DNA from: Thermoplasmata archaeon
GTDB lineage: Archaea > Thermoplasmatota > Thermoplasmata > Halarchaeoplasmatales > Halarchaeoplasmataceae
DNA: 64,000 nt
Assembly: GCA_046538435.1 (NCBI GenBank)
Contig: JBKHIX010000001.1
Span: forward strand, 184-64,183
Direction of reading: 5' to 3'
Every line of letters starts with the position of its first letter. Positions within the stretch are counted from its first letter, which is position 1. Position numbers and translations under genes: made by a program. Of this stretch, positions 1,976-39,501 are shown piece after piece. Under the pieces are notes generated by a model that saw only the letters and a program-made list of their open reading frames with translations, had not been told where the DNA came from and did not search any database.

Positions 1976-2476
1976 CTATGGACCCTGATGCATCGCAGGG
2001 TGATATTGATCGAATTCCTCAAATTCTTCTATCCTTTCAAGCTCAGATTTCAATATATCATAGTGATTCTGCTCCATACCTGATAGATAATCAAGCAATT
2101 TGACTGGCTCACCACTTTCGCCTTCATCTCTTGCTATGTTCGCCATTTTCTTATAAAAATCACGAGCTGATATCTCAGCATCCATAGACTGTTCAACTAT
2201 CTCGGACTCTTCTATATCATCTCCGTACCTTATGAAAGGTATAGGCACCGGTGTTTCTTCTGGTACTTCCATCTCCTTCCTTGGATTCCTTTTCTCGTAA
2301 AGGTCAGTAATGAAGTCCTGGTGTTTCTTCTCTTCTCCAGCTAAGAATTCAAATCTGTTCTTTATCACGAAGTTATCAGTTCTGTCCGATAGATATTCAT
2401 AAACTTCCCTACTGTTCACTTCTGATTTAGCCGCTGCTCTAAGTAACTCATCGAAGTCATATTCTTCCAATTCCAT
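1976..2476 (-). CDS. rubrerythrin-like ferritin-like diiron protein
   Basis: 166 aa; paired E..EEKKH and E..MEQNH helical motifs typical of ferritin-like diiron carboxylate sites. Confidence 0.55.
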
Positions 2477-5213: not shown

Positions 5214-5858
5214 CTACTTAAAAACCTCTCCAGTTTCTTTATACCAGAGAACAAGATCAAGATGCCCTAATGGTATCCCGATCTCATCAGAAAACTCTTT
5301 CATCTTTTTTTCTATATCTAAATATCTTTTTTTAGTCAATGTTTTAGGAATTTCATCTATAACTCCTAAAGCTGTTAGATTTCTTAATATATGTCGATCT
5401 AGAATGGCTAGATTTTCACCTTTCCCGATATTTCTAAGGAAGTGACTAGCTTCTTTATAACCCAAACCTTTAATATTGTCAACAATCCACTTTCTCGCTT
5501 GTTTTTGGTCATCAAATTCAGATATCTTTTCTTTTATTGATCTATTGCATTCTATGAATTTATTTCTAGCTTCAACTAAATAACCTGCTTTATTATTTCT
5601 AAATCTGACTCTCTTTATTTCATCTGAAATCGTATCCAATTCACCCTCTAAAAGCAAATCATTTTCTTTCAACTCTTGAACTGTATCCCAACATACTTTT
5701 GCTTTAGACTGAGGTGTGAACAAACAGAAGGCCATCTCATCGAATACTCTTTCATCTCCTTCTTTCCAAACCTCTTCAAATTCTTCTATCCTCGATTCTA
5801 TCGTTGGTTTTATCTCTTTGTATATTCGTTTTATCTCTTCTTCGCGGACTTTAGACAT
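5214..5858 (-). CDS. ogg: N-glycosylase/DNA lyase (archaeal Ogg2-type 8-oxoguanine DNA glycosylase, HhH-GPD)
   Basis: 214 aa; helix-hairpin-helix LKGLGYKEASHFLRNIG followed by the catalytic D in ILDRH. Confidence 0.7.
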   Translation of the reverse strand: MSKVREEEIKRIYKEIKPTIESRIEEFEEVWKEGDERVFDEMAFCLFTPQSKAKVCWDTVQELKENDLLLEGELDTISDEIKRVRFRNNKAGYLVEARNKFIECNRSIKEKISEFDDQKQARKWIVDNIKGLGYKEASHFLRNIGKGENLAILDRHILRNLTALGVIDEIPKTLTKKRYLDIEKKMKEFSDEIGIPLGHLDLVLWYKETGEVFK

Positions 5859-11216: not shown

Positions 11217-11311
11217 TGCTCCTGGGGGGATTCGAACCCCCGTGATCGGCTGTCTTCGACAGTATCGGCCTCGAAAGGCCGAGATGATTGGCCGGACTAC
11301 ACCACAGGAGC
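11217..11311 (-). tRNA. tRNA-Glu(UUC) carrying a ~20-nt intron at the canonical 37/38 position (BHB-compatible)
   Basis: Reverse-complement reads GCTCCTG TG GTGT AGTCCGGCCAA TCAT C TCGGC CTTTCG|[AGGCCGATACTGTCGAAGAC]|A GCCGA TCAC GGGGG TTCGAAT CCCCC CAGGAGC A, followed by a T-run. 7-bp acceptor, G18G19, TTCGAAT T-loop. The 5' half closely matches archaeal tRNA-Glu as I recall it. Removing the 20 nt gives a 7-nt loop CUUUCGA. The intron fits helix-bulge(3)-helix(4)-bulge(3). Confidence 0.6.
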
Positions 11312-19506: not shown

Positions 19507-19559
19507 AAATTATTTTTGAATTAATACTTTTCTATTCTACATTAAAAAGACAGACATAG

Positions 19560-20950
19560 AGCACTATGCCTTCATGCATACGTGATGAATGCCACTTTCA
19601 CTCCACCCCTCACTGGTTATTTAAATAATATACAAACAATATCAAAAATGGATGTACAAAACATTACGGCAGAACATGCACAACCTAGATAAACAGGAAT
19701 ATGAAATACTGACAAGCCTGTGCCACTTATCTAAAAACGTATACAATGAAACACTATATGAGATACGACAACACTTTTTTGACACAGGTGAGAATCTAAA
19801 CTATCACGAACTCTGCAAGATCATCGGTAAGAAAAGTGAGAATTACAAAATGCTGATATCTCAAGCTGCACAACAGACGATGAAAAAAGTTTGCGAAGCC
19901 TTTAACTCCTTCTTTAAACTCAATAAGAAAAAGAAAAAGGGCGAATATGACGATGACGCTTATCCACCCGGATATCAGGATAAAGACGGTTTCTTCATAC
20001 TAGATTTTCACAACCAAGCTTTTCAGCTCAAAGATGATCACATCAGGATAGGTATAACAAAAAGCTTTAGAGAAAAATTTGACGTTAACAAAAAAGAGAT
20101 TCTAATACCATTCAAGCACGATAACATAACTGAAGAAAACATCAAACGCTTCCAGATCATACCCAAAGGTAAGGGTAATTACCTAGAGTACCGCATCGTG
20201 TATGAGACTGATAAAGAACCAATACAGAAGAATAAAAACAACTTCCTCTCGATAGACCTCGGCGTAGAAAATCTTGCTACCTACGTTGACCGCTCTGGAC
20301 GGTCGTTCATCATAGACGGCCGTAAACTCAAATCGATAAACAGATGGTATAACAAAAAGATAGCAAGATTGAAATCGATAAAAGATAAACAGGGTATCGA
20401 AGAGGATACAAAAAAAATCTCAAAATTGTTCCAAGACAGAAGTAACAAAATACACGATTACATGAACAAAACCGTTCATAAAATAATCGAGCACTGTAAG
20501 AAACATAAAATAGGTGAAATTGTTGTTGGTCACTCAAAAGGCTGGAAACAAGAAGTCAACATCGGTAAGGTAAATAACCAAAATTTTGTACATATACCTT
20601 TCGACAAATTAAAAACCAAACTCAAACATAAGTGTGAATACCACGACATAGACTTCACGCTGGTACCAGAACATCATACGAGTAAATGTAGCTTCCTAGA
20701 CAACGAACCAGTAGAACATCACGAAGAGTACATCGGTACAAGAGTAAAACGAGGACTCTTCAAAACCAAAAACGGCACTTTGATAAATGCCGATGTCAAC
20801 GCGGCTTTGAATATAGCCAAAAAAGCAGGTAAGCTCGAAACCATATCGGGACTAGAGTGTAGTGGCACTGTGGCTGTGCCTGAAAGAATAAGAGTGAATT
20901 GACACTAAACTTCTTCCGAAGCTTCCCTCTTTCAAGGGGGAAGAGAAGTC
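19560..20950 (+). mobile_element. IS200/IS605-family element carrying only tnpB (IS1341-like), with structured ends
   Basis: TnpB ORF plus an imperfect subterminal hairpin upstream (~19566-19594). Immediately after the stop (20922-20943) comes the hairpin CTTCCC-N10-GGGAAG and the GAAGCTTC palindrome. No tnpA. Confidence 0.5.
19652..20902 (+). CDS. tnpB: TnpB (IS605 OrfB) RNA-guided-nuclease-family protein with a degenerate zinc finger
   Basis: RuvC-I ([14 protein letters not shown]), RuvC-II E in [14 protein letters not shown], Ruv[17 protein letters not shown]. The usual CxxC...CxxC is replaced by KCSF...KTKNG. Confidence 0.8.
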
Positions 20951-21452
20951 ACACTAATTTATATCCAATGTAATAGAAAACAGCTAAAGTGATCGCTCCT
21001 CTTATCGCACCCGCTATTATATTAGTTCCAAAAAACCATTTTCTATCCATTCCAATACCCTCTTCTTCTGGATTCAACAATGAGAACAGGTATAAAGATA
21101 CGGAATCTATCATCAATGGAGTACTCAAAACTAAAAGTAAACCATAATATCCATAATTTTTAACGAACCATTCTGAGTATTCTACTATCTTTTTGATAAA
21201 TGAATTTGATACAGAAATCTTCTTGATCTTTTCTCTAGCTTTTGTCCCTATCTCGAAAACTATCAATGACCCTGCACCTTTTCCAAAGGCTAAAATTGCG
21301 ATCAGCAAGGCAGGATGCATGTGAAAATTGAAAAGTCCTATTTCAACAGGGATGGGGAGTATGACAGCAGCTAACACTGTGTAAGTGAAAAATACTATCG
21401 AATATGACACAGGGTCGGTTGCCAAACTAGTTAGAAATCCAATTAAATCCAT
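20949..21452 (-). CDS. hypothetical membrane protein
   Basis: 167 aa, about 4 TM helices; its stop codon abuts or overlaps the IS right end. Confidence 0.4.
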   Translation of the reverse strand: MDLIGFLTSLATDPVSYSIVFFTYTVLAAVILPIPVEIGLFNFHMHPALLIAILAFGKGAGSLIVFEIGTKAREKIKKISVSNSFIKKIVEYSEWFVKNYGYYGLLLVLSTPLMIDSVSLYLFSLLNPEEEGIGMDRKWFFGTNIIAGAIRGAITLAVFYYIGYKLV

Positions 21453-36558: not shown

Positions 36559-36587
36559 CAGACCTGTCTGATGACCAGACTAAGATT
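36559..36587 (-). other. 3' half of the 23S rRNA bulge-helix-bulge processing stem
   Basis: Complementary to 39502-39530 with bulge(3)-helix(4)-bulge(3) geometry; see findings. Confidence 0.7.

Positions 36588-39501
<2,914 letters not shown>

Follow-up and report, generated by a model that had tools for sequence, protein, structure and literature searches.

The 64,000-nucleotide stretch of Thermoplasmata DNA analysed here (the window) very probably harbours, at positions 19541–20952 of its forward strand, a functional-looking, non-autonomous insertion sequence of the IS200/IS605 family that combines a tnpB gene with a predicted omegaRNA (ωRNA) scaffold, in a halophile-associated host. The element is of the IS1341 (tnpB-only) type. 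It measures 1412 bp, its ends having been placed from syntenic empty loci, from homology to a related locus and from a sharp right boundary, and a single open reading frame (ORF), tnpB, lies between them, with tnpA absent from the element. An earlier, sequence-only reading of the same stretch had proposed a solitary TnpB-only IS1341-type element at 19560–20950, limits that miss the true ends by no more than ∼20 nt; the window yielded no further copy of the TnpB protein, the left end (LE), the right end (RE) or the scaffold.

The limits of the element are base-exact because the window junctions could be compared with empty syntenic sites. Among the related loci fetched from genome and metagenome collections (given L numbers here), L170, L173 and L174 lack the element, hold two homologues of the neighbouring DedA-like protein (90% and 86% identical) and share with the window the gene order epimerase, polysaccharide synthase, DedA-like, GDT1, NUDIX and polyprenyl synthase, with only 39–41 bp between the DedA-like and GDT1 genes. 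Read in the orientation of the window, with ^ marking the joint, L170 has ...CATCTAC^ACTAACTTATATCC and L173 has ...TATCTAA^ACTAACTTATACCCC, L174 shares TATCTAA with L173 before the joint, and ACTAAC follows it in all three loci. The left junction of the window reads ...ATTCTAC(19540)^ATTAAAAAGAC... and the right junction ...GAGAAGTCAC(20952)^ACTAATTTATATCC, so that without the element the restored joint would read ...TTCTAC^ACTAATTT. The insertion therefore lies 3′ of a short motif, CTAC (19537–19540, preceded by T at 19536), without target-site duplication, as is characteristic of the IS200/IS605 family; a C repeated at both junctions leaves an uncertainty of ±1 nt. On the right, conservation stops directly after ...AG(A/T)(A/T)G-TCAC at 20952 in 16 of 16 related elements found in unrelated contexts, the element thus ending in TCAC. 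Homology to the closest relative, L001, which resides in another metagenome-assembled genome (MAG) between IS110 transposase and nitroreductase genes and is 87% identical at the amino acid and 83% at the nucleotide level, spans ∼19540 to ∼20961, with differing flanks. A first placement of the left end at 19533, with TTTTC as the target-adjacent motif (TAM) by reference to the TTATC conserved in relatives, was rejected; excision in silico then gave a neighbouring ORF of 181 aa, whereas the orthologues listed are almost all of 167–169 aa, and the empty sites also spoke for the present placement. Since genomes whose neighbouring protein is 86–90% identical are free of the element, the insertion is young.

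The tnpB gene (19652–20902, forward strand) encodes a protein of 416 aa that was assigned from Pfam, NCBIfam, alignments and an AlphaFold model to the ‘derived’ TnpB type with an NADVN motif in RuvC-III. It matches OrfB_IS605 (PF01385, 4e-29) and Cas12f1-like_TNB (PF07282, 1e-9), scores 184 bits against the NCBIfam model guided_TnpB (NF040570, cut-off 100) and is identical to the NCBI entry of a Thermoplasmata archaeon MAG. The intact RuvC-I, -II and -III residues that the sequence-only reading had recognised are D202 (20255–20257), E340 (20669–20671) and D381 (20792–20794), all invariant in alignments of 26 and of 87 relatives (43–87% identity). The AlphaFold model built from the 87-sequence alignment (predicted local distance difference test score, pLDDT, 87; predicted template modelling score, pTM, 0.79) finds its best Foldseek matches in Cas12f, ISFba1 TnpB, ISDra2 TnpB and Fanzor2, with template modelling (TM) scores of 0.62–0.74 at 14–19% sequence identity and E-values of 1e-12 to 6e-19 against Cas12f/TnpB. 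At the sequence level, phmmer found nothing in the PDB that matches the protein, and a profile search against solved structures gave weak partial matches only. The window protein thus shares its overall fold and RuvC triad with Cas12f and with the ISDra2 and ISFba1 TnpB–ωRNA complexes (8H1J, 8EXA, 8IAZ), and the locus shares with the ISDra2 and ISFba1 systems a predicted ωRNA at the 3′ end, a guide outside the RE and insertion 3′ of a TAM, yet identity to these proteins is only 14–19%. The ORF is free of frameshifts and internal stop codons, and the whole-gene ratio of non-synonymous to synonymous substitution rates (dN/dS) against L001 is 0.058 at a dS of 1.26, which indicates strong purifying selection; together with the intact triad and intact ends this value argues for a working TnpB–ωRNA unit. 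The first 100 nt of tnpB (19652–19751) are 96% identical to L001 3001–3100 (third positions 30/33), compared with ∼80% over the ORF body (third positions 206/352). A second constraint that overlaps this stretch, or else a recent recombination event, may account for the pattern, which was not seen in five other pairs.

The four-cysteine (C4) zinc finger usual between RuvC-II and RuvC-III is missing. Between the E..TSK of RuvC-II and the NADVN of RuvC-III, the alignment leaves C346, the first Cys of CxxC...CxxC, as the single cysteine, so that three of the four zinc ligands are lost, as the sequence-only reading had noted. Its further view that this makes the protein an unusual, degenerate variant did not hold. 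Approximately 150 of 169 related loci (38–87% identity) have 0–1 Cys in the translated segment, and the clade extends over Bacillota (Geobacillus, Anoxybacillus and many gut and rumen taxa), Synergistota, Asgard archaea, Thermococci, Methanohalarchaeum, haloarchaea and Thermoplasmatota. Only two finger-bearing relatives were found, L051 and L077, which read TCSFCG...VCKKCG at this position. Judged from the sequences compared and the low dN/dS, the finger-less state is ancestral to the clade and no local decay or defect. Nor is the loss new. [quoted passage not shown] The same paper assigns an NADXN RuvC-III motif to a ‘derived’ major clade, a motif to which the window TnpB conforms, in contrast to ISDra2 TnpB of the ‘typical’ clade (DRDxN). 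The window protein resembles the finger-lacking branches described there in having lost the C4 site branch-wide with its catalytic residues kept, and differs from RIIIr-4, the sole finger-less clade named in the text of that paper, whose RuvC-III is rearranged whereas the triad here is not.

The replacing segment (residues 345–375, 20684–20776) has conserved residues of its own, namely F348, D350, E352, Y360, G362, R364 and R367-G368-L369, and was modelled with block pLDDT values of 85–88 and short strands at 363–366, 369–371 and 377–379. In an archaeal sub-branch, Cys346 (20687–20689) is conserved together with a His ∼11 residues further on (TSKCSF.D.E...HH.EY; H356/H357 at 20717–20722 in the window). 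Bacillota proteins have Ala in place of this Cys, and an insert (IPVYNADNPQEY.F) occupies the His region. Only the archaeal proteins could retain a residual metal site.

Loss of three of four zinc ligands, and a role of the finger that the literature leaves unclear (Altae-Tran 2023, PMC10691335), would also fit a clade-wide inactivation of DNA cleavage, in which the protein acts only as an RNA-guided binder or an ωRNA processor. [quoted passage not shown] Cas12a offers a further comparison: it is active as a nuclease with a Nuc domain that does not bind zinc.

The last ∼125–145 nt of the element form a conserved structured region, with near-identity to L001 from ∼20808 and a modelled ωRNA scaffold core at 20828–20952 (forward strand) that is delimited by covariation and by frozen synonymous sites. 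RNAalifold, applied to 16 elements, placed four helices in the ORF end and just after it. Helical segments of the scaffold lie at 20834–20836/20855–20857, 20841–20842/20849–20850, 20864–20868/20876–20880 and 20893–20895/20904–20906, and a long-range helix joins 20882–20888 (GAAAGAA) to 20911–20917 (TTCTTCC), which in longer relatives encloses a variable-length insert with one or two extra hairpins. Beyond the stop codon, CTTCCCTCT (20922–20930) and AGGGGGAAG (20935–20943) form a terminal hairpin with a UUCA loop (TTCA in the DNA) that is conserved with compensatory changes. In the MAFFT alignment of the 16 elements, terminal hairpin included, 91.3% of cells are paired against 39–52% when the partners are slid; double changes occur at 19 pairs, and covariation scores 0.50, slid partners giving no more than 0.16. 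The covariance model, R1, was built from eight short-type sequences, including that of the window, because, with long-insert variants in the alignment, MAFFT placed the terminal hairpin wrongly. It gives full-length matches at the tnpB 3′ end in more than 70 loci, all on the gene strand, and exactly one match in the window, at 133 bits the highest of all, the window being among the eight sequences of the model. Synonymous divergence from L001 falls from a dS of 1.57 upstream of 20828 to 0.056 between 20828 and the stop codon, third-position identity rises from 206/352 in the ORF body to 29/31 at the ORF end, and the 50 nt 3′ of the stop codon contain two differences.

These observations bear out the sequence-only reading where it saw a structured 3′ end at the place to which ωRNA scaffolds map. 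None of the conditions which that reading had set for its own refutation held: the cysteines are missing, the triad is undisrupted, and related copies with a shared end structure occur elsewhere. Its hairpins within the 50 bp after the stop fared unequally: the terminal hairpin stands, with compensatory changes, while the local hairpin CTTC-TTCC-GAAG was rejected, as its 3′ half varies without compensation and the CTTC pairs instead with the upstream GAAAGAA. The single-sequence fold of the 3′ region is modestly better than those of shuffled sequences (z about −2), a weak signal that was not used as evidence. Rfam returned no match at the gathering threshold in the window and, with E-values up to 10 over 20650–21050, a chance match only. 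L051 and L077, in which the finger is present, carry the same 3′ scaffold, which accordingly occurs in relatives with and without the finger.

The 3′ structure might instead be a DNA-level right end for TnpA only, consisting of hairpin, guide and cleavage motif, with no RNA scaffold. The terminal hairpin, GAAG and TCAC do fit the RE layout of IS608, and Gomes-Filho 2015 (PMC4615843) noted for a comparable hairpin that it could be a retained DNA-level structure. However, the constraint extends over 125–145 nt, far past a ∼35 nt RE signal; four further helices in the coding region covary, one of them long-range over an insert of variable length; synonymous sites are frozen across the last ∼30 codons; and the same architecture occurs in Bacillota relatives with a different terminal motif, TTCAG. 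We therefore consider a DNA-only right end improbable, and favour an ωRNA scaffold overlaid on the RE.

Two related loci carry additional scaffolds. In L001, a second right end and scaffold of an L162-like subfamily (...GGAAGCACCTT..AAGGTGAGGATGTCAC) lies at 5456–5534 on the minus strand, convergent with the first copy, ∼1.1 kb downstream of it and cut by the contig end, and the IS110 transposase gene is just upstream of the first copy. In L082, the start of a second scaffold (2146–2192, plus strand) is found ∼540 bp past the first element and is truncated by the contig end; as no more than ∼12 nt upstream of this scaffold show similarity, it may belong to an ORF-less, PATE-like (palindrome-associated transposable element) derivative.

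In TnpB systems the guide lies outside the RE (Karvelis 2021, PMC8612924; Meers 2023, PMC10055086). By analogy, the flanking host DNA from 20953 (ACTAATTTATATCC...) is the predicted ωRNA guide, ACTAATTTATATCCAATGTA (20953–20972, forward strand; length approximate), with ACTAATTTATATCCAA as the predicted target sequence, and it extends over the final codons of the DedA-like gene. The sense-overlapping transcripts (sotRNAs) of IS1341-type tnpB genes in Halobacterium offer a precedent: they are ∼218 nt long, start ∼1100 nt into tnpB, end ∼74 nt past the stop codon and carry an RE-like UUCA hairpin (Gomes-Filho 2015, PMC4615843). This suggests an RNA of roughly 20750 to 20970 at the window locus, with the scaffold 5′ end at about 20750. 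The likeness to the sotRNA elements of Halobacterium salinarum and other archaea (PMC4615843; PMC12558985) is close: a lone tnpB, a structured region covering its last ∼100–150 nt and continuing to ∼50 nt past the stop, a terminal 9-bp stem (20922–20943) with a UUCA loop like their ‘RE-like tetraloop’, and haloarchaeal TnpBs of the same clade that are 55–57% identical to that of the window. The window element differs from these haloarchaeal elements in its Thermoplasmata host and its reshaped LE, and its scaffold is known here from sequence.

A guide region that overlaps the end of a host gene, a single copy and the lack of a nearby transposase could also suggest a domesticated TnpB with a host role, similar to the RNA-guided regulators of the TldR (TnpB-like nuclease-dead repressor) kind, directed against the 3′ end of the DedA-like gene. 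We consider this very improbable. The RuvC triad is intact here, whereas TldRs have lost it and are nuclease-dead; the locus is empty in syntenic relatives; transposition signals are kept at both ends; and the guide matches the flank simply by virtue of the landing site.

A mobile element is consistent with the organisation of both ends, which follows that of Helicobacter pylori IS608. The LE (19541–19651, from LE alignments and IS608 geometry) contains a relic AAGAC core (19547–19551), a 4-nt DNA guide AGAG (19558–19561), an imperfect hairpin (19562–19569/19576–19584, loop ∼TTCA), a conserved ATGAATG (19585–19591) and a TATA-like TTTAAATA (19620–19627) that lies 25–32 nt upstream of the ATG and is a putative promoter. 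The upstream hairpin reported by the sequence-only reading at ∼19566–19594 is thus close to one that is conserved in relatives and, in L001, better paired, although its single-sequence fold is not significant. The RE signals (20918–20952, from alignments of 16 elements and IS608 geometry) comprise the guide GAAG (20918–20921), the subterminal hairpin (20922–20943), a 5-nt linker and the transposon-encoded motif (TEM) TCAC (20949–20952). All these LE and RE features are on the forward strand. On the left, 21 nt separate the end of CTAC from the hairpin foot; on the right, the cleavage site follows TCAC, 9 nt 3′ of the foot. In IS608 the left cleavage site (CL, TTAC) is 19 nt 5′ of the left hairpin foot, the right one (CR, TCAA) is 10 nt 3′ of the right foot, and both are read by 4-nt guides located 5′ of the feet (GL AAAG, GR GAAT) (PMC3201880, PMC5934647). 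The two elements thus agree in having subterminal hairpins at both ends with 4-nt guides 5′ of each foot, in cleavage positions at ∼20 nt on the 5′ side of the left hairpin and ∼10 nt on the 3′ side of the right one, and in insertion 3′ of a tetranucleotide without duplication, and the GR/CR pair GAAG/TCAC of the window is identical to GAAT/TCAA of IS608 save for a compensated fourth position. Unlike IS608, the window element is without tnpA, has a TCAC-like predicted TAM in place of TTAC, and encodes a TnpB of another clade.

By the IS608 pairing rule, the AGAG guide predicts TCAC as the TAM, and the L001 flank indeed reads ...TATTCAC^. Nine other elements have the LE guide AAGA, all with TTAT(C) upstream as that guide predicts, so that the window element with its TCAC-like predicted TAM stands apart from most relatives. 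The apparent conflict between TTATC and CTAC is resolved because the lineages differ in their LE guide; applying the IS608 rule by inference, the TAM would vary by lineage and covary with that guide. The host flank TTTTCTATTCTAC (19528–19540) resembles the LE tip TTATCTATTTGAC of Methanohalarchaeum copies (10/13; L003 ∼1388–1400) and the L001 flank CTATTCAC, and is native sequence according to the empty sites; this might point to a preferred target of more than 4 nt. Separately, many Bacillota copies of the L089–L143 group, on different contigs, share an identical ∼70-nt stretch ending ...GCTTGTTAGAGATAACAAGAAGTTCATAA ∼110 nt upstream of the LE core. It contains a perfect hairpin, CTTGTTA-GAGA-TAACAAG, and in a small number of copies it holds an insertion of other sequence; this would mean either that the LE extends further than supposed or that these copies share a target. 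At the RE, the group has TTCAG as its terminal motif in place of TCAC.

Several points weigh against a fully functional TnpB–ωRNA element. As the sequence-only reading had indicated, tnpA is absent: searches of the 64 kb with Pfam and, over all six-frame ORFs, with phmmer and IS608 TnpA did not detect it, and this copy may no longer be able to move. The TAM, CTAC, departs by one base from TCAC, the motif that the LE guide predicts, and this could make re-excision or targeting by TnpB weaker. The ωRNA is predicted from conservation alone, and conservation of the terminal hairpin, GR and TEM is also required at the DNA level for TnpA. The high pairing counts of the A8 alignment (76 matches; 90.6% of cells paired against at most 49% with partners slid; 26 of 28 pairs compensatory; score 0.60 against at most 0.13) are inflated by its having been fitted to the model, the MAFFT-based count being the unbiased one. 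Finally, no biochemically tested member of the finger-less clade was found in the searchable literature, which also lends some weight to the cleavage-dead alternative discussed above.

It is possible, although in our view doubtful, that the element is a stranded relic, intact in sequence and no longer able to move or home, in which TnpB and scaffold look healthy merely because the insertion is recent. In its favour are the absence of tnpA and the single copy within the window, the departure of CTAC from the TCAC predicted by the LE guide and found in L001, and the youth of the insertion, which is absent where the neighbouring protein is 86–90% identical. Against it, the dS of 1.26 and dN/dS of 0.058 relative to L001 reflect long-term selection on the lineage, but say little about this copy since its insertion; there is no frameshift or stop, and the scaffold scores 133 bits, the top match, with the window in the model's eight sequences. 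Furthermore, elements with tnpB alone are acted on by TnpA in trans (Meers 2023, PMC10055086) and the window is only part of the genome. Of ∼170 loci, only L034, L018 and L007 have a Y1 TnpA gene (PF01797) immediately upstream of tnpB, in divergent orientation, and two of these three ORFs are short fragments. Many relatives are on contigs of 1.4–2 kb, which fits a repeated element. We therefore retain the reading of an intact, non-autonomous element, whose current mobility would depend on a TnpA elsewhere in the genome and on tolerance of the CTAC TAM. One relative, 66% identical (L163 2892–3731), adjoins a phage capsid gene (PF25209), and that copy may reside in a virus or provirus.

The immediate neighbours of the element are GDT1, NUDIX and the convergent DedA/VTT-like membrane protein gene (20949–21452, minus strand; 167 aa), which was identified from its homologues and the junction comparison. 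Those homologues, with names such as Saliniplasma and Natronoplasma, are 133–198 aa long among the 120 matches listed, nearly all being of 167–169 aa. The sequence-only reading had observed that the element abuts or overlaps the stop codon of this gene at 20949, and the TGA stop is indeed the TCA of the terminal TCAC (20949–20952). Both this in-frame replacement stop and the third base of the terminal Val codon come from TCAC, and the native stop codon, CTA at 19537–19539 (TAG on the minus strand), is orphaned at the left junction. As the stop and the last codon base are restored, the DedA-like protein is unchanged by the insertion. The terminal TCAC also provides the stop codon of a long convergent ORF in L162 (2277–2280), L068 (1764–1767), L064 (1386–1389), L077 (2762–2765) and L081 (2830–2833), and in two of these loci, L068 (nitroreductase) and L064 (AIR-synthase-related), the Pfam domains of that ORF are not cut short at their end. 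The TAMs TTAT, TCAC and CTAC each correspond to a reverse-complemented stop codon plus one base, in the register of the TEM. TEM-supplied stop codons occur at ∼5 of 72 loci, which by a rough estimate is near the expectation for tolerated insertions and would fit chance.

These results can be combined into a proposed mechanism. The element would have entered as single-stranded DNA 3′ of CTAC, exactly at the convergent stop codon of the DedA-like gene and without duplication, with a Y1 TnpA supplied in trans reading the subterminal hairpin at each end and the 4-nt DNA guides; the LE guide AGAG would pair with the TCAC-like TAM and the RE guide GAAG with the TEM TCAC. The tnpB gene would be transcribed from the TATA-like box in the LE, and an ωRNA of ∼150–220 nt, consisting of the scaffold 20828–20952 and ∼16–20 nt of flanking DNA from 20953 as guide, would derive from the 3′ part of this transcript or from a separate sense-overlapping transcript. 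The TnpB–ωRNA complex, in which a cysteine-poor segment confidently modelled by AlphaFold takes the place of the C4 zinc ribbon between RuvC-II and RuvC-III, is predicted to cut DNA that carries the TAM followed by a guide match, namely the donor joint left empty or an allele without the element. Cleavage of the empty joint would favour recombination that restores the element, resulting in homing or retention.

A more far-reaching interpretation, which we put forward tentatively and consider rather doubtful as a whole, joins three proposals: a distinct zinc-less OMEGA lineage, natural reprogramming of the TAM and scarless insertion at stop codons. Under the first, the large ‘derived’ (NADxN) clade would be one that folds its target-nucleic-acid-binding segment without a C4 zinc site; an archaeal sub-branch may perhaps use a residual Cys346/His357 site, and the scaffold, absent from Rfam and from solved structures, would mark a structurally distinct, uncharacterised lineage. 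Under the second, the LE guide of the window element and L001 would have been rewritten from AAGA to AGAG beside a reshaped hairpin, switching the TAM from TTAT(C) to TCAC, which equals the TEM, and the TAM recognition of TnpB itself would have to follow. Under the third, the shared stop-codon register of TAM and TEM would make insertions at convergent stop codons scarless for the host protein.

Elsewhere in the window, an archaeal large-subunit (LSU) rRNA is located at 36586–39500. A tRNA match at 11217–11311 (minus strand) is 95 nt long against a model of 71 positions, and is probably an intron-containing archaeal tRNA.

In comparison with solved TnpBs, the window protein is without the C4 zinc finger, and its scaffold is without a counterpart in Rfam. 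Well formed as it is, the locus is ordinary; it belongs to a clade that has no solved structure and whose scaffold is not in Rfam, and it leaves the current understanding of OMEGA systems unchanged. It is nevertheless of textbook quality, with base-exact ends, an intact nuclease sequence under strong selection and unusually clear scaffold covariation, and it adds a Thermoplasmata member to the finger-less TnpB clade. The covariation of LE guide and TAM provides a testable natural example of a change in target specificity. If the clade is active, the zinc ribbon would be dispensable for TnpB function, and its members, some of them derived from thermophiles or halophiles, would represent compact nucleases for which the scaffold model R1 is available for mining.

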